From: a virus
Lineage: Duplodnaviria > Heunggongvirae > Uroviricota > Caudoviricetes
Length of the DNA: 37,915 nucleotides
Virus record (IMG/VR): IMGVR_UViG_2778261269_000005
Location: 1-37,915 of that record
Reading direction: 5' to 3' (one strand)
The position numbers and the translations under genes are program-made. The notes below the pieces were generated by a model. The model had not been told where the DNA came from, did no database searches, and was given only the letters and a program-made list of their open reading frames with translations. Positions 3,316-24,826 of this stretch are shown piece by piece. Each line of letters starts with the position of its first letter. Within the stretch, counting starts at the first letter, position 1.

Positions 3316-6300
3316 CGGTATACTCCGCTTAACTGCCCGCCATCACGGGACTGTTGTTGCATAAAATCTTCTGCAGCCCTTTTCCCCAGGTTGTAAACCG
3401 CCTGCATGACTTCCGGCCCAATCTGTCCGTTCTGGCCATCATTATTGATCTCGATGTTGTACTGCGGCGCAAACATCACCATCCCCGAACCACAGGTCGC
3501 TGCCACAACACCCAGCTTACCGTCAGCCCCCCTGCGCAAGGGCAGGATAGCCTCAGGCCCCGCTTCACCCATCACCCCCGCGCCTTTTGCAAAAGCAAAA
3601 AACGTCGGACGGTTAACCACCGTGCCACTGTAGCGACTCAAATCAGCAGACTGATAAACACCACCTTCTGCATTGGTTTTCACATCACCGAAATCAAACC
3701 CCATCACACTGCCAATCCCTTTGACAGCCTTCATCATGGTTGCCTGCGCCAGAATTTTTGCCATATCTGACAGCACAGATGAGGTGAAAGATTTGAAATT
3801 GAGTTTGCCGGTGGTAACAAAAGTTGCCAGACCATTTCCCATACTACTGAAAGCAGACATAAACATCTGTTCTGCAGTCCCGGCAGCATTATCCGCGTCG
3901 GCAGTAAAATTCATGAACGCGCGTTTTGTACCGTTTCTCCACTCCCCCTGCGCAGCATCCATCTGTTGCCAGTAGCGGCGATTCTCATTCAGTTTCCGGT
4001 TCAGACTGTCTGTCAGCGTCTGTTCAGCCTTCCGGTATGCGTCAGAACCATACGAGCCTTTCTGCTTACTGTCCCGTTCAAGTTGCTCCAGCTGTTGCTG
4101 GTACTGCTGTCGTAGACGCAACTGCGACTGGTACCGCTGCCGTTGCTGATCGCCCATTCCTGCCATGGCAACGTCCAGATCGTGTTGCTGACGCTGTGCG
4201 CGCTCTTCCTCAGCCAGTTGACTGGTCAGCTGAATGGTCTTTTTCTTCAGGTCATTGAGGGCAGTCTGCTTCTGCAGCTCCTGCTGTTTTGCATCCAGCA
4301 GCGTCAGTGCCTGAATCAGCTCATCCTTGTGAGCCAGTACACTTTTTTCATCTGCTGTCAGTTTTTTACCGGCTAAATCGCTGATACGCTGCTGAAGGGC
4401 CAGAAGCTGTTTATGCGCTTCTGTCATCCTTTCAGTAGCCATGCCCGCTGACTGTCTGGCGGCGGCAATCTGTCCCTCCACCTGCGCCTGTTGCTGGCTG
4501 TACTGCAGTAATAGCCGGGTGGCCTCATCATTACGGGTGGCAGGCGTTTTTTTCTTAATGGCTTTTTCGTAACGTTCATTTTCACGCTGTATCGCTGCGT
4601 CCCTGACCGCCTGATCGGCGTACTGCATGGCATTAATACGCGCAATTTCACGCTGATGTCGTGCTGCTTCCGTTTCGTTCATCCGGTTCAGCGCGGCATT
4701 TTCAGCATTCCGGCGTTTCTGCTGCTCCTGATAATTTCGCTCAGCCTGCTCTTTTGCATCCTGCAAATCCTGCTGGCGTTTTCGCTCTTGCAGCGCATCC
4801 AGTTGTTGCTGATCGTATTCCCCCGTGGTGGACGCCTTAGTCCACGGAAATTTCTTCGCCCGCTGAATTTTTTCCTGCAGCGACGCAATCTGCGCATCAA
4901 GGGAATCTTCCCGACCAATGTTCATGGCCGCATCCCAGAACTGCTTCCACCAGTCAGACAAGGTTTGCAGCGTACTGCCCAGCGCATTGAGGTTATTATC
5001 AATATCCGACGTACGTTTACCGGTTTCCTCTGCCAGTGCAGACATGGCTATCCGGGCTGCGTCACTGGTGCGCCCCTGCTCTCCGAGCACACGGATCTGT
5101 TCAAGCTGGGTGGCTGTCAGAAAATGCAGTTCATCATCCAGCGCCTTCGCAGCACTGACCGGATCATCCTTCAGCCGTTTAAACTGACTGATGGTGTCAC
5201 TGACAGACTGCCCTACCGAGCGTTCCATCTGTGCGGCAGCTTTCGCCACCATACCAATATCGTTACCGTGAAATGCACCGCTCCCCACTACCTGCGCCAG
5301 TGACCCCGCCATGGCATGTTGCGTGATGCCATTACCGGAAAGATTTTTACTGAGCGCCCACAACTGCCCGGCTGTCACACCGGCATAGTGTCCGGTGAGC
5401 TCAAGCTGCCGGTTAAAGGCTTCGCCTTCTTCCTGCCCCTCCATCCAGGCTTTACCCAGACCAATAACCGCAGCAGTGATCCCTCCGATAACTCCCCCCA
5501 CCGCCAGGCCTTTCGGAGTCATTAATTTATCAATCCAGCCGGCACGGTTAGCCAGGGTGATCCCGGAGCCACGAAGCGCACCGAAATTACCTCGCGCCAG
5601 CTCACCAATCATGACCCCCAGCTCCCGACGGGCTGCCGCACTTTTCAGTCCCAGCGAATGTGTGGTGTTTCCGGCTTTCTCCATTTTACGGATGTACACC
5701 TCCGCGGCACTGCTGCACCCAAGTTGTGCCGCCTTTGCCCGAAGCAGTTCCGTCGTGGTCATTTTCTGGCGACTTGTCTGTTCTTTCAGCTGACGAATAA
5801 ATGCGGTTTTCTGGCGGGTGGCCGTTTCCTCTGCCTGTGTCAGAACGCGGGTTTTCGCTGTCACCTCAGAAATCAGGGCCAGATAATCCTGCTGAGCAAT
5901 CCCGCCACTGTTTCTGGCCTGTCGGATCTGCTGCTGAATACGCTGTAACTCCTGCAGCCCCGCACTGGCCTGTTTTACGCTGTCGATCTGACGATAAAAT
6001 GCGGCAGCCATCTTATCCTGCGCCGCAGCCAGCGCAGCCGCCTGAACCTGCTCCTCCCGCATCTGACGACTCAGGGCCTCCATCCGCAGGCGCGCCCTTT
6101 CCACATCTTCCGCCAGCGAAACATGCCCCTGCGCATGCTTCACCACGGCCTGAGTCTGTATCACCGTCGCGCTGGCAGCCTGTTTCTGACTTTCCTCAAA
6201 CCGTTTCATACGGGCTTCGGCCCGCTCCGCCTCCCTTGCTGTACCATTCAGCAGATTTTTTACACGCGGAAGCTGCTCTTTAAAATCGGCGGTATCAATG

Positions 6301-18405: not shown

Positions 18406-18789
18406 TTAGCGCTTCAACTGAAAGTGAGGCCCGTCTTTCAGCGTTTTCCAGTCCCCGCCCCATTCGATGGCGATTCCCAACTCTGCGCCAGCCTGCTTAA
18501 ATGCCTGCGCGATTTTCTCGTACAGAGGCCAGTCCCATGACACCTGGCTGCCAACGTAGGCAACAACATCCACCGCATCACCGGTCAGGTGGCGGCTGTT
18601 CATGGTCTGGCTTTTCCCTTCCGCGACCAGCTGCTTCTGGCGATACTTACTGCGCAGGCCTTCCGTAATACCGAAATCAACCTCCGTCAGCTCCAGCGCA
18701 CGGCGAACAACAGCAACCAGCTGTGGTTTGACGCCCTCCAGATTTTTCTCACTTCGACGACTGAATCTGAATTTACCGGGCATACTCAC
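18406..18789 (-). CDS. endolysin, peptidase M15 family (L-alanyl-D-glutamate peptidase type)
   Basis: 127-aa ORF with SRHLTGDAVDV and GIAIEWGGDW, typical of zinc M15 cell-wall peptidases; ATGA overlap with the preceding membrane protein. Confidence 0.75.
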   Translation of the reverse strand: MSMPGKFRFSRRSEKNLEGVKPQLVAVVRRALELTEVDFGITEGLRSKYRQKQLVAEGKSQTMNSRHLTGDAVDVVAYVGSQVSWDWPLYEKIAQAFKQAGAELGIAIEWGGDWKTLKDGPHFQLKR

Positions 18790-19073
18790 CTCCGTAATGA
18801 AAGGATTTTTGATACGTTCCCGCGTGCTCGTATCACCAGCACGCAGAACACCAGGTTAATCAGGACGACCAGCCAGTTACCGGGTGGAAAGCGACCACAC
18901 AGATAACAAAGCGGCGCAAAGGCATAAAGCAGCATCAGCAGCCAGGCCAGCCACGACATCAGCGGTTTATGTCTCGACTCACCACGACGATAAAAAAAGA
19001 GCGTCAGCACGATAACCGTGCTTAACACCACATTCAGTAATCCGGGAAGGTTACTTAACATTACCGCCTCCAC
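18786..19073 (-). CDS. small membrane protein of the lysis cassette (holin/antiholin-like)
   Basis: 95-aa ORF with 3 predicted hydrophobic helices, between holin and endolysin. Confidence 0.55.
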   Translation of the reverse strand: MEAVMLSNLPGLLNVVLSTVIVLTLFFYRRGESRHKPLMSWLAWLLMLLYAFAPLCYLCGRFPPGNWLVVLINLVFCVLVIRARGNVSKILSLRR

Positions 19074-19440
19074 CCCGCAGACGGGAGAACAGCCCGGATA
19101 CCAGCGATGCGATATCCTGCTGGTGGATGAATGAGAGAATCTTCACCGACACCACCGATACCAGTACCGCGCAAAGCGCGTCGAGAGATGTGCTGTGAAG
19201 ATTCAGTTTTTCAACCAGGTAAGACGCCATCACATCCGCCCCCAGCACGCCAACAATGAACGACACCAGAAAATGCGCTGCCACACGCCAGACAGAAATC
19301 TGCTGTGGTATCGTGGCCACAAACAGCGCCCCTGCGAATGCACCAAACACAATCCCGAAATCCGTTCCGGTAAACAGCCCGAATACTGTCGCCCCGCCGA
19401 GCGCCGCAGCCGTGCCGGAACCGGACAAGGGTTCAGACAT
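19051..19440 (-). CDS. putative holin
   Basis: 129-aa ORF with several Gly/Ala/Val-rich hydrophobic helices, AGGAGA RBS, first gene of the lysis cassette. Confidence 0.55.
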   Translation of the reverse strand: MSEPLSGSGTAAALGGATVFGLFTGTDFGIVFGAFAGALFVATIPQQISVWRVAAHFLVSFIVGVLGADVMASYLVEKLNLHSTSLDALCAVLVSVVSVKILSFIHQQDIASLVSGLFSRLRGGGGNVK

Positions 19441-19460
19441 ACGTTTTTCTCCTGTAAATA

Positions 19461-19481
19461 AAAAAGGGCCTCTGTCGGCCC
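19461..19481 (-). terminator. terminator-like hairpin just upstream of the holin RBS
   Basis: GGGCC-N6-GGCCC stem-loop followed on the minus strand by a T-run. Confidence 0.45.
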
Positions 19482-19912
19482 GTAAAAAAACACCCCGTCA
19501 AAGGCACCCGCAGATACCTTTTGTGTGGCGCTATCTGATGTGATGTGCGCCAGGCGTGGCGCGGATATGAAAAAGGCCCGCCGCAGCGAGCCATATGCAT
19601 AGGTAAAAAAAATGCCCACACATAAGGCGGGCTAACGCAATGTAATGATGAAACAGAGTTTACTTGTATAGATGTTATAAGAATGCGCCGTCAGCCTGCT
19701 GTGCAAACTGGCAAATCGTAGGCCCGGAAACAGACAACGACGCATTCTGGTATCACCTCATCCCTGCAACATGCAGGGATGACTACAAAAAAAGCACTGA
19801 AACTGTAGGCGGTCAGGTCTACAGAATGAAAAACAACAAATCCACCTGCCAGGTCTGTTCTTCACGAAAATTCGCCAGTGCTGATAATAAAGCTATGACT
19901 CATCAGTTTTAC

Positions 19913-19989
19913 TGGAGAGCGGGTGGCGAGAATCGAACCCACATCATCAGCCTGGAAAGCTGAGGTAATAGCCATTATACGATACCCGC
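19913..19989 (-). tRNA. diverged tRNA-Gly(UCC)-like gene, possibly a pseudo-tRNA
   Basis: Minus strand reads GCGGGTATCGTATAATGGCTATTACCTCAGCTTTCCAGGCTGATGATGTGGGTTCGATTCTCGCCACCCGCTCTCCA: cloverleaf with GGTTCGATTC T-loop and UCC anticodon, but a 7-66 mismatch, wobbles in the T-stem and no clean CCA. Confidence 0.55.
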
Positions 19990-20206
19990 ATACTGTACTG
20001 GCTTCCGGAATCACACGAATTACCAGGAAAGCCAGCACTGGTCCTTCAGACGATAGTAACGCCCCTGTGAACACAAAAATAACCGTCTTCCGGACCAGTC
20101 AGAATACTAACGACAGTTTTTCAGACATCAAAAATATATTTGGTGTTCAGTTTTAAATATGTGTATACATCTGTATCAGAAATATACAACTTATATCATC
20201 ACTGAA

Positions 20207-21253
20207 TTAAAAATCTTTCGTGATTTCTCTGACCGTCTGATTAAAACGTTCCTCTTCCAGTTCCACGCCAATCGCCCTGCGTCCCAGCGACAGTGCCGCT
20301 TTTATTGTCGACCCCGACCCCATAAAAAAATCTGCGACCAAATCGCCTGGACGGCTGCTGGCAGTAATTATCTGACGCAACATATCCGCCGGTTTTTCAC
20401 AGGGATGTTTACCCGGATAATACTGCACGGGCTTGTGCGTCCAGACATCCGTATACGGAACGGCAGCCGATACGGAAAAATAACGCCGCAGGGATTTGTA
20501 CTCATCCAGCAGGCTGGCATATTGCCGGTTCAGTTCGCTGTATGTGCTGACCAGCTGGTGGGGTGGCTGCTCCAGTTCACCGCGCTGGTGTTTTTCTGCC
20601 GCAACACGCGCAAACAACGCCTGCAGTTTACTGTAATCGGCCTCATTCGGTAACTGCCACTGACTGGTACCAAACCAGTGCGAAGCCATGTTTTTCTTTC
20701 CGGTGGCTTCAGCTATCTGTTTTGACGTTATCCCCAGTAATTCACGCGCATCACGGAAGTAAGAAATCAGCGGAGCCATCACGTGCTGTTTAAGCTCGCG
20801 CCCCTTTGCTGCATAGCCGTCATTTTTTGGCTGGTATGGCCCCTGATAATGTTCAGCAAACAGAATGCGCTCTGTTGCCGGGAAATATGCCCGTAAACTT
20901 TCCTTATTGCACCCGTTCCAGCGTCCGGACGGCTTCGCCCAGATAATGTGGTTCAACACATTAAAACGTTCACGCATCATGAGTTCGATATCTGATGCCA
21001 GTCGATGGCCACAGAACAGGTAAAGACTTCCGGCAGGCTTCAGTACCCGCCAGAACTGTGCAAGACACTGGTCCAGCCATTTCAGGTAATCATCGTCCCC
21101 CTTCCACTGGTTATCCCAGCCCTCGGGCTTCACTTTAAAGTATGGCGGGTCTGTGACTATCAAATCGACAGAGTTTTCCGGTAAGGTCAGGATAAATTCC
21201 AGGCAATCAGCGTTGACTAACTCACAGCTGGATATTTTTACAGTATTAGCCAT
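20207..21253 (-). CDS. DNA methyltransferase, beta-class N6-adenine/N4-cytosine (DPPY) family
   Basis: 348-aa ORF; N-terminal LIVTDPPYF (motif IV) and C-terminal DFFMGSGST (motif I). Confidence 0.85.
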   Translation of the reverse strand: MANTVKISSCELVNADCLEFILTLPENSVDLIVTDPPYFKVKPEGWDNQWKGDDDYLKWLDQCLAQFWRVLKPAGSLYLFCGHRLASDIELMMRERFNVLNHIIWAKPSGRWNGCNKESLRAYFPATERILFAEHYQGPYQPKNDGYAAKGRELKQHVMAPLISYFRDARELLGITSKQIAEATGKKNMASHWFGTSQWQLPNEADYSKLQALFARVAAEKHQRGELEQPPHQLVSTYSELNRQYASLLDEYKSLRRYFSVSAAVPYTDVWTHKPVQYYPGKHPCEKPADMLRQIITASSRPGDLVADFFMGSGSTIKAALSLGRRAIGVELEEERFNQTVREITKDF

Positions 21254-21403
21254 AGATCAATAAGCACTTCTCTGATAGGCTCATACCGCTTTTGCGCAAA
21301 GCAGATGGGCCTGAGGTTTGCTTGTGACCCCAACGCATGAGCAGATGGCTGGCAGGTGCCGCTAACACCCACCAGCCGCCCATTACCACAAATTAAAAAG
21401 CCT

Positions 21404-21601
21404 TCACTGAGGAAGGCGTCTGTAACAACCGAACTGATAATCTGCCAGACCCGCCATAACAAGCTGGGTCAGTATTAACTGGCAGCGTTCGCGTGAAAGG
21501 TAAGTATTCTGCGCAATTTCCCCAACTGTTGCCGGTTCAGTGACGCTTAATTCATTAAACACCACTCTGGCTGTTTCGGTCATATCCTGCTGTTTTAGCA
21601 T
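21404..21601 (-). CDS. hypothetical small protein, possible winged-helix DNA-binding
   Basis: 65-aa ORF between the membrane moron and the methyltransferase; PATVGEIAQNTYLSRERCQLILTQL is HTH-like. Confidence 0.35.
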   Translation of the reverse strand: MLKQQDMTETARVVFNELSVTEPATVGEIAQNTYLSRERCQLILTQLVMAGLADYQFGCYRRLPQ

Positions 21602-21774
21602 GTCTTTTTCTCTTTATTGGTTAACGTGACATACCAATAACTCTTGTCGAAAAAGCCAGCAAGCTGAAAGACCGGTATTAATAACCACCTGCACATTTTA
21701 TGTACCGAACCATTTTTCTGGCATAAAAAACCTCTCAATGGCGGGCGGTAAAAATCTTTGTTACTCAAGAAATT

Positions 21775-22488
21775 TTAACGCACTCTGACTGTATTAATTT
21801 CAAAATCATTAATATTTCCGCTATTAAATATAACGAATTTCTTACCCCCACTCCTGTATGATTTCGATAACACCAGACGAGCATCATAACGCGCAATAAT
21901 GTAATACCATACATTCTCATAGTGGATCGCCTGATATTCCCTCTTAAACTGTGGTTTGTACCAACCGGCAATGAGAGAGAATGCCCAGAAATAAATCATA
22001 AACCCAGCCATCATGAACTCAATTCGGTGATGGCGAATAAAAGACATTTCCGAAAAACATTTGACTGAAACAAGTCTTCTTCCAGACCTGACAAAAAGCG
22101 TGATTGTAAAGGCAGCAAGAATGCAGAAAATCAGTACATCTGGCTCAACATGCTGATGAATTACCGAAAACTCCAGAACAGGTGGAATAAAAAGCAGCAA
22201 TATCGCGAGAAAAAGCCGGATAAAACTCAAATTTTGTATATTGCGCTTTTGTTTTATGCCCAAAAAGAAAATAATACCAACTCCCCATCCAATAAGGAAT
22301 ATAACGATAACTGTCACAGCATAAAACAAACTTCGTGCTACATCATCGACACCAGCCCCGACAACCCACCATGGAAAGCCATAGTAAAATGAAGTACCCC
22401 ATCCATAGAAATAAGCGCTTCCCCATCCTAGACAGCCCATATAAGCAACAAAAAGTGAAGAGTTTCTGAGCAGAGCACTGTCATCCAT
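21775..22488 (-). CDS. hypothetical polytopic membrane protein (AT-rich moron downstream of Q)
   Basis: 237-aa ORF in a markedly AT-rich island; aromatic-rich N-terminus (WGSAYFYGWGTSFYYGFPWWVVGAG), several hydrophobic helices, about 100-aa soluble C-terminus. Confidence 0.55.
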   Translation of the reverse strand: MDDSALLRNSSLFVAYMGCLGWGSAYFYGWGTSFYYGFPWWVVGAGVDDVARSLFYAVTVIVIFLIGWGVGIIFFLGIKQKRNIQNLSFIRLFLAILLLFIPPVLEFSVIHQHVEPDVLIFCILAAFTITLFVRSGRRLVSVKCFSEMSFIRHHRIEFMMAGFMIYFWAFSLIAGWYKPQFKREYQAIHYENVWYYIIARYDARLVLSKSYRSGGKKFVIFNSGNINDFEINTVRVR

Positions 22489-22629
22489 AGTAACACCATT
22501 AACAACTCAAAAATATCAACACATATTACATAACAAATTGGATTCCATGCAGTCAAGGGGCGTCATTGATGGAGAAAGTATTGGCACAATCATCATCACG
22601 TTTAATGTCTATGCCATTTTTTTGGGGAT

Positions 22630-22653
22630 AAAAAAACCCGCTCGGTCACGGGT
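22630..22653 (-). terminator. tR'-like intrinsic terminator
   Basis: ACCCG-N8-CGGGT hairpin followed on the minus strand by T7, about 50-65 nt after the putative start. Confidence 0.5.
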
Positions 22654-22706
22654 TTTACTAGCTTTGCCATCACGTATAAAAACGGCAAAATATCAGATTC
22701 ACACGA

Positions 22707-22735
22707 AATATATGCCTTTTTATCTACTTTTGCAA
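22707..22735 (-). promoter_or_regulatory. pR'-like late promoter immediately downstream of the Q-like gene
   Basis: Minus strand TTGCAA-17bp-TATATT starting about 10 nt after the Q-like stop codon. Confidence 0.45.
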
Positions 22736-22742
22736 TACTTTG

Positions 22743-23414
22743 CTATGAAAATGCCGCCTTTTGTTTTGAACGTGTTCCCTCCACCAACAATAAAGCTTCA
22801 CCATCCAGCCGATGAAAAATGTGTTTCATTGCAACCCAGTGACCAGTAAATGTCTTGGACCAGTTTTTGGTTGTTACTCCCACCAGTAACGCCAGTTCCT
22901 GGTATTCGTAACCTTCCCCACCAAAAAGCTCAGCTTTTACCGCCTGCGCCGCCAACCAGATCAACGTCTTCAGGCGCACCAGAGTTTTTCCTGCAATTTT
23001 TCTGGTACCGGATTGAGCATTAAATTCAGTCCACGCCCACTGCGTTATCGCGATCTGATGCTCCCAGCAAATGCTACCGCTGTAACACCACAGCAGCCAG
23101 GCTTTATGATGTTCTTCAAGAGACAGAACGGCGCGTCGCCATGATGATGTCGAAAACTCAACCGGACTGACCAGGGCAATTGATGAACCTTTCGCCAGCG
23201 ATTGCTTTCCCGGGATCGGTGGATTATCCAGCGTTACTATTTTTCCAGTGACCTTATCGCGGTACCGGATTTTTTTACGTCTGTAACGCCCTGTATTGAA
23301 CATGGCATTCTCCTGCCAGGCTTCAAGCTGACCTTTTGTTGCTCCACTCAAATCAGCGGTGGCGATCATGAGCTGCTCACGCACAAACTGTAAATACTGG
23401 TTATTCATGCGCAC
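22743..23414 (-). CDS. putative late-gene antiterminator (Q-like, QuuQ/YdfT-type)
   Basis: 223-aa ORF between rusA and the pR'-like promoter/terminator; synteny with quuQ-ydfU of Qin. Family not verified. Confidence 0.45.
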   Translation of the reverse strand: MRMNNQYLQFVREQLMIATADLSGATKGQLEAWQENAMFNTGRYRRKKIRYRDKVTGKIVTLDNPPIPGKQSLAKGSSIALVSPVEFSTSSWRRAVLSLEEHHKAWLLWCYSGSICWEHQIAITQWAWTEFNAQSGTRKIAGKTLVRLKTLIWLAAQAVKAELFGGEGYEYQELALLVGVTTKNWSKTFTGHWVAMKHIFHRLDGEALLLVEGTRSKQKAAFS

Positions 23415-23764
23415 TCCAGTTCTGTGATTTTTATCCCCAGCCGCCCACCCGGAACGAGCTGACCACGCACAATATTGATTTCATCAAACTGCTCGTCGTC
23501 TATGAGTAATCCGGCATGGGTCAGTGCATCCAGTGGTGCTTTCAGGATATTGTCCTGGTCACGACGGCGCTTATCCGGTGGCTCTGCAATAATCTTTATC
23601 GCCAGCCTTCCGGACAGGTTTAATTTCAGCCGCTGCTGGCGAACAATAAGCGCCACATCCCGGCGATAACGCTCACCGGCTTTTGATACAAAATATGCGC
23701 TGCCACGACGCCGCCAGTAGGTGTTCACCGTCGGCGGATAAGGCAAAACAAACTCTATACGCAT
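23405..23764 (-). CDS. rusA: Holliday junction resolvase RusA
   Basis: 119-aa ORF; DKRRRDQDNILKAPLDAL and GGRLGIKITE match RusA. Confidence 0.85.
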   Translation of the reverse strand: MRIEFVLPYPPTVNTYWRRRGSAYFVSKAGERYRRDVALIVRQQRLKLNLSGRLAIKIIAEPPDKRRRDQDNILKAPLDALTHAGLLIDDEQFDEINIVRGQLVPGGRLGIKITELECA

Positions 23765-23776
23765 CAGTAACCTCTT

Positions 23777-24826
23777 TTACCCAAGCACGCCGGTTGCAAA
23801 GGCGTGATCAAGAAAACGAAAAATTAAATCAACCTGAGAACCATGCTTTTCTTCGAACGCCAGCGGATCCGCATGAAGTTCGTTGTGATGTTCCCGGCAC
23901 AACGGTAGCGTGAAAATATCGTGGGCCTTTGTTCCCATCCCTCCCTGACCGTGACCTATCAGGTGATGGGGATCGTCGGCTGGTTGACCACAACACGCAC
24001 ACGGCTGTGTCTTCACCCAGCGCGTATATTTCTCATTTACCCAACGGCGACGTTTAGGTCGCCTCATGAAAGATTCCGGAGACTCCGGATCAACGGTGAT
24101 GCATACCACCGTCTTTTCCAGTGGTGGGTTCTGTTGCTGGTGGGAGTGAGGCAACGGCGCAAGATTTTTTGTGCGCTGCTTCAGTATGCTGGTGGCGGTC
24201 TGCTCTCCCGGTACGATGTCGCTTTCGCGGTACACCGCGCGGATTTTTTCCGCACGTAACCCCAGAGAACGACGTAATACTGCCTCCGGAAGCGCGTCCG
24301 CCACTTGATTGCAGACCGCCCACCAGGATAATTCAGCCAGCGATAACTCCCTCTCCTGCGTGCCATTCATTGCATGGCGTATGACGTCAATCATCCATGC
24401 TGACAGATTTTGATGAGCAAGTTGCCCGAGTGATTCGGATGTCTGGTCACGCAGCTGGTTGTCGCAGTGCCAGCACAACACCATCGCGCCGGTACCGTAA
24501 CGATGTATGACGATTTCACTGTGATGATAGTCACCATGAGGCCACTGGCAGGATTTGACATGACGCAACAGCCAGTCAGACAGTGCCCCAGCGCCGCCAG
24601 CAGCACGAATCACCCGCTCATCGCTGAAAAATGGCAGTAATGATTTATCCTCCGCCAGCGGCTGGCGAACGGCAGGGACGACTCCGGATGGCAGGCCGCA
24701 CATGCTTTTCGATTCCGGCTCCACCAGCACTCGAGGATTGTGAAATACCTGCATGGATTCACGACCTGGCTTAAGGACCACCAGCCCGAGTTCCGGTACC
24801 AGAACAGGTCGAAGTAATACCCGCAC
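23777..24826 (-). CDS. ydfU: YdfU-like prophage protein (DUF968) with C-terminal HNH/zinc-finger-like motif
   Basis: 349-aa ORF (same length as Qin YdfU); C-terminus CACCGQPADDPHHLIGHGQGG...CREHHNELH. Confidence 0.65.
   Translation of the reverse strand: MRVLLRPVLVPELGLVVLKPGRESMQVFHNPRVLVEPESKSMCGLPSGVVPAVRQPLAEDKSLLPFFSDERVIRAAGGAGALSDWLLRHVKSCQWPHGDYHHSEIVIHRYGTGAMVLCWHCDNQLRDQTSESLGQLAHQNLSAWMIDVIRHAMNGTQERELSLAELSWWAVCNQVADALPEAVLRRSLGLRAEKIRAVYRESDIVPGEQTATSILKQRTKNLAPLPHSHQQQNPPLEKTVVCITVDPESPESFMRRPKRRRWVNEKYTRWVKTQPCACCGQPADDPHHLIGHGQGGMGTKAHDIFTLPLCREHHNELHADPLAFEEKHGSQVDLIFRFLDHAFATGVLG

Follow-up and report, generated by a model that had tools for sequence, protein, structure and literature searches.

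The window analysed here, the whole 37,915 nucleotides (nt) of the virus record IMGVR_UViG_2778261269_000005, is a lambdoid prophage with its genes on the minus strand. It carries an intact gene (20207..21253, minus strand) for a beta-class N6-adenine DNA methyltransferase of 348 amino acids (aa), a member of the M.EcoGII family. In the explanation that we favour, and consider well founded, this is an orphan methylase of the M.EcoGII type, expressed from a Q-dependent late operon and directed against restriction, on which the leader of its messenger RNA (mRNA) appears to impose an additional post-transcriptional lock. The methylase itself adds little, being one more copy of a characterised family that is sold as a reagent and is found in about half of sequenced E. 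coli. What is new is the leader RNA, together with the tight three-part module of leader, methylase and an upstream open reading frame (ORF) for a small winged-helix protein.

The methylase and its specificity

The gene begins at the first start codon after a stop, and its product matches the Pfam profile N6_N4_Mtase (PF01555) over residues 29-340 (153.8 bits against a cut-off of 26.7, E=8.6e-45). Profile positions 1-219 account for these residues, with about 90 extra residues between the two halves of the core. The DPPY motif (IV) lies at residue 35 and the FMGSG motif (I) at residue 310, with the target recognition domain (TRD) between them; the beta-class order of motif IV before motif I, which a first, sequence-only reading of this DNA had described, therefore holds. 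When inactivating changes were looked for, the ORF proved to be free of frameshifts and full length (348 aa vs 349-352 aa in relatives), with both catalytic motifs intact. The best PADLOC model for the protein is MTase_II (E=8e-153), labelled 'Type II methyltransferase'.

M.EcoGII, a beta-class enzyme of 349 aa, is encoded by a cryptic prophage (Murray et al. 2018, PMC5778455). The window methylase is 85.5% identical to it over 346 aa, with 94.8% identity in the N-terminal core and 80.8% in the four-helix TRD (residues 160-237). Identity is 91.9% to L24 of phage phiP27 and 85.6% to the enzyme of phage 1720a-02, which Murray et al. named 'very similar' to M.EcoGII (PMC5778455). Two reconstructed ancestors were also compared, Anc291 (87.6%, about 87% in the TRD) and SUPREM (72.9%; 69-73%, including the TRD). 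Across genera the methylase is kept at 60-99% identity. Judged by sequence, it is a member of a known, characterised family and not a novel enzyme.

In M.EcoGII adenine is methylated in any context, and the enzyme also acts in vitro on single-stranded DNA (ssDNA), RNA and RNA:DNA hybrids, DNA giving the highest activity (PMC5778455). Both Anc291 and SUPREM are still non-site-specific (PMC11551740), and a methylome paper on Shiga toxin-producing E. coli gave prophage methylases homologous to M.EcoGI/GII a 'nonspecific' predicted specificity. Non-specificity of the window methylase is supported by these enzymes, because some that are closer to M.EcoGII and some that are farther from it have all kept the property; its target specificity is probably 'none'. 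Two points weigh against this. About 19% of the TRD residues differ from M.EcoGII, so that some sequence preference is possible. In addition, the M.EcoGII reference was machine-read, with a few reading errors, from the supplementary table PDF of PMC11551740 and is only 93.7% identical to the 1720a-02 enzyme, which makes the percentages approximate and good within a few percent.

The differences in the TRD could be taken to favour another reading, in which a sequence-specific orphan methyltransferase is expressed in the lysogen and acts epigenetically on host or prophage expression, like Dam, CcrM or M.BceJIV. By sequence, its nearest relatives of solved structure are beta-class enzymes with an orphan or regulatory role (8urk/9c3u, E=2e-25; CcrM, 5e-16), RsrI being matched as well, and among NCBIfam models there is a weak, sub-threshold likeness to YhdJ and CcrM. 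However, the structure matches cover only the Rossmann core (residues 8-114 and 281-341) and not the TRD, which is 81-87% identical to that of enzymes shown to be non-specific. The gene is also preceded by a tR'-like terminator and by another hairpin of terminator type, sequestration of its start site is possible (see below), and members of the family are silent in lysogens (PMC5778455). M.EcoGII in particular is silent in its lysogen, slows growth when expressed and was proposed to act against restriction (PMC5778455); elsewhere Mom and M.EcoGII are paired as silent and toxic (PMC12707154). The sequence-only reading had left a choice between an anti-restriction and an epigenetic function. The first of these is favoured, whereas a heritable epigenetic role in the lysogen is quite improbable, because the relatives of this enzyme, including the roughly 85% identical M.EcoGII, are non-specific, silent in lysogens and toxic.

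The broad substrate range of M.EcoGII in vitro, and the engineering of its relatives as writers of N6-methyladenosine in RNA (PMC11551740), raise the further thought that the relevant substrate might be RNA or ssDNA, such as transcripts or replication intermediates, instead of duplex phage DNA. With activity highest on DNA (PMC5778455), and with a place among late and anti-defence genes and a stacking with other DNA methylases in some loci that fit DNA protection, we regard this as very improbable.

That the methylase is an orphan was examined in a comparative set of 80 loci, one genome per species, reaching from Escherichia, Salmonella, Klebsiella, Enterobacter and Citrobacter to Xenorhabdus, Photorhabdus, Morganella and Proteus, in which the methylase is 60-87% identical to that of the window. 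Neighbours within 2.6 kb were clustered, and Pfam and PADLOC were run on the ten largest clusters per side and on 61 rarer upstream clusters. Upstream, the recurrent genes are Q antiterminators of PF06530, PF03589 and PF06323, DUF968, DUF1367 and RusA; downstream, they are phage lysozyme (44 loci), Rz (37 loci), three holin families and the small terminase. The 61 rarer upstream clusters, scanned together with three comparison proteins, include further DNA methylases and various morons that resemble defence genes. Restriction endonuclease families were absent from the ten largest clusters per side, and from the 25 most frequent of the 59 families in the 61 rarer upstream clusters, the 69 rarer downstream clusters lying outside the scan. 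There is likewise no restriction endonuclease in the window, and no restriction enzyme is annotated anywhere in a 99.8% identical prophage of E. coli OkiPb01716, integrated next to potC.

These results uphold the earlier claim of an orphan gene, and the cognate endonuclease that was looked for near full-length homologs does not recur in the 80 loci. As expected of the M.EcoGII family, the gene sits on a lambdoid prophage without a cognate endonuclease, and no linked one was found that would place it in a Type II restriction-modification system. One candidate, L22 of phiP27, a 'GIY-YIG nuclease', was rejected as a cognate enzyme, since PADLOC identifies it as PD-Lambda-1 (E=2e-89), a stand-alone defence protein; it has a T5orf172/MUG113 domain. 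The PADLOC label of the window methylase would suit a restriction-modification system of which only the methylase is here, its endonuclease being encoded elsewhere or lost, or a decaying pseudogene. Against that stand the missing endonuclease in the window, the near-identical prophage and (as a recurrent gene) the 80 loci, together with a full-length ORF, both catalytic motifs and 60-99% identity across genera, and this origin is scarcely credible.

Leader RNA and small upstream protein

Between the methylase and the small ORF upstream of it lies a conserved, structured non-coding leader RNA of about 140 nt (21254..21391, minus strand), which adjoins the methylase ATG and is, on the evidence of pairing, fold and linkage, a candidate translational control element. 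It was missed in the sequence-only reading, where the small ORF was the only adjoining element. The approximately 150 nt between the two ORFs are more conserved than either protein, with many columns invariant from Escherichia to Proteus. A coding role was considered for a 47-aa ORF of the window that ends 5 nt into the methylase, and was rejected: across loci the conserved nucleotides read in all three frames, and insertions and deletions are not multiples of three. No leader match was found in Rfam 15 for 18500-23500 at E<=1, and a search of 21230-21620 alone (391 nt, E<=10) gave chance-level matches only (E 4.5 and 8.4), more than 50 bits below threshold. In the library of papers searched there was no described RNA motif upstream of M.EcoGII-type methylases, nor the leader sequence itself.

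The leader is tied to the methylase gene. A covariance model finds one copy per locus, always ending at the methylase ATG, with more than 95 bits in 46 sources (the window, two phage records and 43 genomic loci), and nothing else in 1 Mb of flanks. In an independent pattern scan of viral contigs, at least 119 leader stretches were found; the methylase is the next gene in all 115 with enough downstream sequence, and in 113 of these it begins 52-54 nt after the pattern match. Of 5426 complete E. coli genomes, 2708 carry the leader, with as many as 8 copies in one genome, and the E. coli records listed have no RNA feature annotated for it. It is an abundant conserved RNA element outside current annotation and Rfam families.

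That the leader might belong to the small ORF instead was rejected on three grounds: at least 11 loci combine leader and methylase but lack the small ORF, in PhiR5_1 the small ORF stands with no leader, and phiSTEC1575-Stx2k has only the 5' half of the leader. In this last phage (L004, 3917-4061, minus strand) the leader runs through helix P2 (32.7 bits) and is followed by unrelated AT-rich sequence and an AraC-type helix-turn-helix gene. By sequence this half leader seems to be the scar of a recombination that broke within the leader. In one viral contig (L153, IMGVR_UViG_2698536677_000006) there are two leader motifs 3 kb apart, at 344-422 and 3330-3408, which implies either tandem methylase modules or an assembly of two prophages.

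Helices in the leader were proposed by hand and tested with slid and shuffled controls on MAFFT alignments that had not been fitted to structure. On the raw MAFFT alignment RNAalifold gave a partial structure only, and a brute-force scan of column pairs was swamped by clade effects. The first helix set consists of P1 (UGGGC/GCCCA), P2 (a 12-bp hairpin), P3 (UUCGCU/AGCGAA), P4 and P5 (GUGAGC/GCUUAC). In 40 distinct sequences 90.7% of its cells are paired, vs 30-47% with slid 3' partners, and in 72 distinct sequences 89.4%, vs 30-48%. In both alignments 11 pairs have changed on both sides, against 5-7 in the slid controls, and the observed covariation score was reached by none of 500 shuffles, a count that is not a probability where the sequences are related. 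At one P3 pair the 72 sequences include CG in 27, UA in 18, AU in 17 and UG in 4.

A second helix set, mutually exclusive with the first, is also conserved. UGUGA/UCACA and AUGGGC/GCUCAU are 98.4% paired, every substitution keeping the pair; the former could join the 5' tail to a loop as a proposed pseudoknot. A long-range helix (GGUCA/UGAUC and AAGCG/CGCUU), whose 3' strand ends four bases before the AUG, is 91-92% paired vs 17-42% when slid, and four of its pairs have changed on both sides. P3 competes with this AUG-proximal helix and covaries. In the AUG-proximal helices G-U pairs outnumber A-C pairs by 128:7 and 65:6, and the fold is therefore specific to the mRNA-sense strand. The minimum-free-energy fold of the window leader is the 'closed' form (-63.1 kcal/mol, z=-3.3), in which UGAUCU just 5' of the AUG is paired. 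There is no Shine-Dalgarno sequence within 12 nt of the methylase ATG.

Some of this material weighs against so firm a fold. The relatedness of the leader sequences deprives the shuffle counts of a statistical meaning, P1 is invariant and hence uninformative, the Morganellaceae clade supplies part of the covariation seen in the AUG-proximal long-range helix, and Xenorhabdus and Photorhabdus carry only a shortened leader. In these two genera (loci L046-L073) what is left of the leader, some 90 nt ahead of the methylase, includes GUGAAAUGG-CGGCUGG and the P2 hairpin. A U-run stands directly after P2 in many of these copies, and P2 there resembles an attenuator or terminator and not the enteric multi-helix fold.

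Upstream of the leader, a 65-aa predicted winged-helix protein (21404..21601, minus strand) is the conserved partner of the methylase. It has 334 database homologs and matches phrog_331, of unknown function (E=1e-37), with no Pfam, NCBIfam or PADLOC match above threshold and no place in a recognised Aca or C-protein family. The name 'TrmB family transcriptional regulator' that its homologs bear in RefSeq is a weak-similarity label: the protein scores 18 bits against the 25.6 needed for the TrmB family (PF01978), and has a single winged helix and no effector domain. From 25 homologs AlphaFold2 predicted a bundle of helices H1-H2-H3 with a beta-hairpin wing, at a pLDDT (predicted confidence score) of 91.3 for the best model and 58-69 for the other four. 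The neighbours of the model in Foldseek are winged helices of MarR, OhrR, IclR, O-methyltransferase N-domains, T4 MotA and the SelB RNA-binding domain (query-normalised TM-scores 0.66-0.80, best E=1e-3). The HTH-like (helix-turn-helix-like) character that the earlier reading gave this ORF is borne out by the predicted winged helix, a fold compatible with DNA, as that reading suggested, or with RNA as the ligand.

For 76 genomic loci the upstream sequence was available; in 58 of them a homolog of the small ORF stands on the methylase strand, 85-200 nt ahead of that gene, as it does in 104 of 113 viral contigs, a linkage far stronger than that of any flanking gene. Weighing against a fixed partnership, the small ORF is absent from the other 18 of the 76 loci, of which at least 11 keep the leader, and it occurs without the methylase in PhiR5_1 and in phiSTEC1575-Stx2k, where the AraC-type gene then follows. 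Because each occurs without the other, the small ORF is not obligatory for the methylase. In loci without it (L013, 5140-5835; L014, 5171-5836; L058, 5172-5834; and others) a different gene of 135-300 aa stands directly upstream of the leader.

By analogy with leaders described below, it is likely that this leader controls translation of the methylase. Its default would be the closed, non-translated fold, while the competing, covarying helices would leave the bases 5' of the AUG free. Some factor would then shift the leader to the open fold late, whether the winged-helix protein, co-transcriptional kinetics or a ligand. The 65-aa protein is the most obvious candidate for setting the switch, by analogy with Com on mom mRNA or Aca2 on acr mRNA. 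A more ambitious proposal, which we make tentatively and rate a little below an even chance, is that the leader represents a new and widespread cis-regulatory RNA family for M.EcoGII-type methylases, a two-state translational switch set by the 65-aa protein as an RNA-binding winged helix, and with it a second 'com-mom-like' circuit, independent in evolution, for the timing of a toxic enzyme against restriction.

The same region might instead be mainly a DNA operator or promoter, on which the small protein would act as a DNA-binding transcription factor of the C-protein or Aca kind and regulate a methylase promoter. The structural neighbours of the protein are mostly the DNA-binding winged helices of MarR, OhrR and IclR, its RefSeq name points the same way, and P4 forms an almost perfect palindrome of 16 bp within the leader region, GCTTTnGCGCnAAAGC, to which the protein could bind. 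An invariant TGTGnnAAT at the 5' edge of the leader, moreover, resembles an extended -10. Yet it is pairing and not sequence that is kept in P2, in P3 and at the centre of the palindrome, where AGCGCT changes to TGTGCACA with pairing kept, and the excess of G-U over A-C pairs is a sense-strand RNA signature. A scan of 21251-21391 for a sigma-70 promoter found none, the TGTGnnAAT 'extended -10' not being robust across sequences, and ahead of the small ORF no repeat of the C-box kind was found. We consider a mainly DNA-based role unlikely on balance. DNA-binding and RNA-binding roles of the small protein are not mutually exclusive, since Aca2 reportedly binds both.

A switch might also work without a phage protein, the leader being a metabolite riboswitch, for example for S-adenosylmethionine (SAM) or S-adenosylhomocysteine, or an RNA that responds to kinetics or temperature alone. 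In favour are its multi-helix junction, where numerous unpaired nucleotides never vary, a 5' tail that may pair with a loop (UGUGA/UCACA, 98% paired) and mutually exclusive helices; the leader persists in at least 11 loci without the small ORF, and the downstream enzyme uses SAM. Nevertheless, the Rfam searches gave no likeness to a known riboswitch class, there is no evident ligand logic for a late phage gene, and the leader has a narrow range, the prophages of Enterobacterales, and goes with a single gene family. Such a switch is improbable.

Late-operon position, probable silence in the lysogen, and cargo

The proposal that the methylase is expressed from the late operon is supported by anatomy and synteny. 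The gene lies downstream of Q, of a pR'-like promoter and of a tR' hairpin, on the strand of the lysis genes, and the order is the same in the 80 loci. The antiterminator Q gene (22743-23414, minus strand; PF06323, E=2e-90) is followed just downstream by a pR'-like late promoter, TTGCAA-17-TATATT (22707..22735, minus strand), and by a tR'-like intrinsic terminator (22626..22661, minus strand), recognised by sequence and fold as a 9-bp G+C-rich stem followed by U7. The hairpin stands about 45 nt past the promoter, which is the classic pR'/tR' arrangement. It counts against this assignment that pR' was recognised by its consensus match only. A further terminator-like hairpin, GCCTTCCTCAGTGAAGGC followed by TTTTT (21392..21417, minus strand), overlaps the stop codon of the 65-aa ORF, and in the alignment of related loci most have a hairpin of different sequence at the same position.

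The 5' region of the small ORF (21602..21745, minus strand) is conserved and common to Stx phages, as seen in an alignment with 1720a-02, phiP27, PhiR5_1 and phiSTEC1575-Stx2k. In the Stx-type relatives a strong terminator hairpin, the presumed tR', stands directly before this conserved region of about 125 nt and the small ORF, so that the small ORF and methylase would be the first late genes. In the window the region opens with a degenerate copy of that hairpin at about 21745, where CCCGCC...GCGGG is reduced to CCGCC...GAGG. Read from the sequence, this is a putative recombination joint downstream of the 237-aa moron described below, at which another block of Q, pR' and moron replaced the Stx-type Q region. 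A megablast search of phage records found the module of small ORF and methylase in phiP27, many Stx2a phages, 1720a-02 and the LT-IIb phage SerU.

How a toxic, indiscriminate enzyme stays off in lysogens and on at the right time was left open by Murray et al. (PMC5778455). According to a study of Stx phages (PMC7547250), their late promoter is constitutively active yet terminated in lysogens, and the silence of the methylase family in lysogens is explained by Q-dependent read-through of this kind. We infer that the window methylase, too, is silent in the lysogen, to which its tR', second terminator-like hairpin and occluded start would be suited. In the lysogen, transcripts from pR' would stop at tR', with the second hairpin after the small ORF as a further barrier, and the enzyme would not be made. 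After induction, Q-modified RNA polymerase would read through to the methylase. The enzyme, through its helix-turn-helix-containing TRD, would methylate N6 of adenine in essentially any sequence context and hypermethylate the replicating phage DNA just before packaging. In the next host, methylated progeny would then be protected against adenine-sensitive restriction of Types I, II and III, the window prophage being in this way equipped for broad restriction evasion. Terminator, leader and winged-helix protein together offer a concrete, testable hypothesis for the control of the methylase; if true, the leader switch would explain its silence in about half of all E. coli genomes.

The methylase has more neighbours than the 65-aa ORF, the only one named in the earlier reading. 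Upstream, all on the minus strand, are also a 237-aa AT-rich membrane ORF (21775-22488), Q, RusA (23405-23764) and DUF968 (23777-24826), the last two named by Pfam. Downstream, on the same strand, are a tRNA-Gly(TCC) at 19917-19989 (ARAGORN; Rfam tRNA 46.8 bits), in the tRNA/toxin cargo slot of this phage group, and a lysis cassette (18406..19440) of two holins (19051-19440 and 18786-19073; PF16931 and PF05449) and an M15 endolysin (18406-18789, PF13539).

The 237-aa ORF has a GC content of 41-44%, about four transmembrane-like segments and a match to phrog_1521, of unknown function, with no match in Pfam, NCBIfam or PADLOC. A sigma-70-like TTGACT...TAATAT stands directly upstream of it. It sits between tR' and the small ORF, and because this is the slot of PD-Lambda-1 in phiP27, it is a candidate moron expressed in the lysogen, possibly for superinfection exclusion or defence.

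The tRNA/toxin cargo slot (19441-20206, minus strand) lies between methylase and holin. Besides the tRNA-Gly it contains, at about 19990-20060, the decayed remnant of a tRNA-Arg with the D-arm deleted relative to phage SerU-LTIIb, and, just ahead of the holin, three consecutive terminator-like hairpins at 19466-19632. There are no toxin genes in this slot of the window; at the same place phiP27 has stx2e and SerU has LT-IIb. In Xenorhabdus (L057, 7174-7953, and six other loci) a protein with a Thoeris anti-defence Tad2-like domain (PF11195) and DUF7823 is encoded directly downstream of the methylase, a sign that in Xenorhabdus phages with the Tad2-like gene the late operon may open with an anti-defence island. 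Across relatives, the stretch from Q to holin is a cargo hotspot of lambdoid phages, with PD-Lambda-1, methylase, Tad2-like genes, tRNAs, Stx2e and LT-IIb.

Comparison with known systems

The nearest characterised enzymes are M.EcoGII and M.EcoGI, from prophages of E. coli O104:H4 C227-11. They share with the window methylase about 85% identity, the same length, the arrangement DPPY - TRD - FxGxG, the prophage location and the orphan state, and the M.EcoGII homolog in phage 1720a-02 has the same position after Q. In contrast, about 15% of the window residues differ from M.EcoGII (about 19% in the TRD), and the activity of the window enzyme is predicted from its sequence. The upstream winged-helix ORF and the leader are not mentioned in the published descriptions of M.EcoGII and M.EcoGI that were consulted.

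As a whole locus, the window is close to the Stx2e phage phiP27 (NC_003356). Besides L24, the 'TrmB family regulator' L23, the leader, the tRNA and the order holin-holin-M15 endolysin are the same. The differences are that phiP27 has stx2e between tRNAs and holin and PD-Lambda-1 between Q and the small ORF, whereas the window has no toxin genes, the 237-aa membrane ORF in the PD-Lambda-1 slot and a different Q gene.

Orphan methyltransferases of the M.BceJIV/YhdJ type (PDB 8urk and 9c3u) are the best solved relatives of the catalytic core, but the similarity is limited to its Rossmann part (residues 8-114 and 281-335) and the TRDs are unrelated. Enzymes of this type are sequence-specific. Aca regulators and the controller (C) proteins of restriction-modification systems resemble the window module in that a small protein with a (winged) helix-turn-helix is encoded just upstream of a counter-defence or modification gene that is harmful when over-expressed; unlike these systems, the window has no endonuclease or acr gene.

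The closest parallel in regulation is com-mom of phage Mu, where Com, encoded just upstream, binds the mom leader and opens a structure that inhibits translation (PMC6483171). In both cases a gene for broad DNA modification against restriction, toxic in Mu and in the M.EcoGII family, has a late position and is preceded by the ORF of a small protein that binds, or in the window may bind, nucleic acid; the start region of mom mRNA can be occluded, and the fold predicted for the window leader would do likewise. There is no homology between the two: Com has a zinc finger of the Cys4 type, while the 65-aa protein, with only two cysteines, has no such finger and is predicted to be a winged helix, and Mom is not a SAM methyltransferase of this class. 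In Mu, com overlaps mom, whereas the window genes are separated by the terminator-like hairpin and 150 nt. The relation between the window module and com-mom is one of analogy and not of membership, and by that analogy a regulatory link between the small protein, the leader and the methylase may be proposed.

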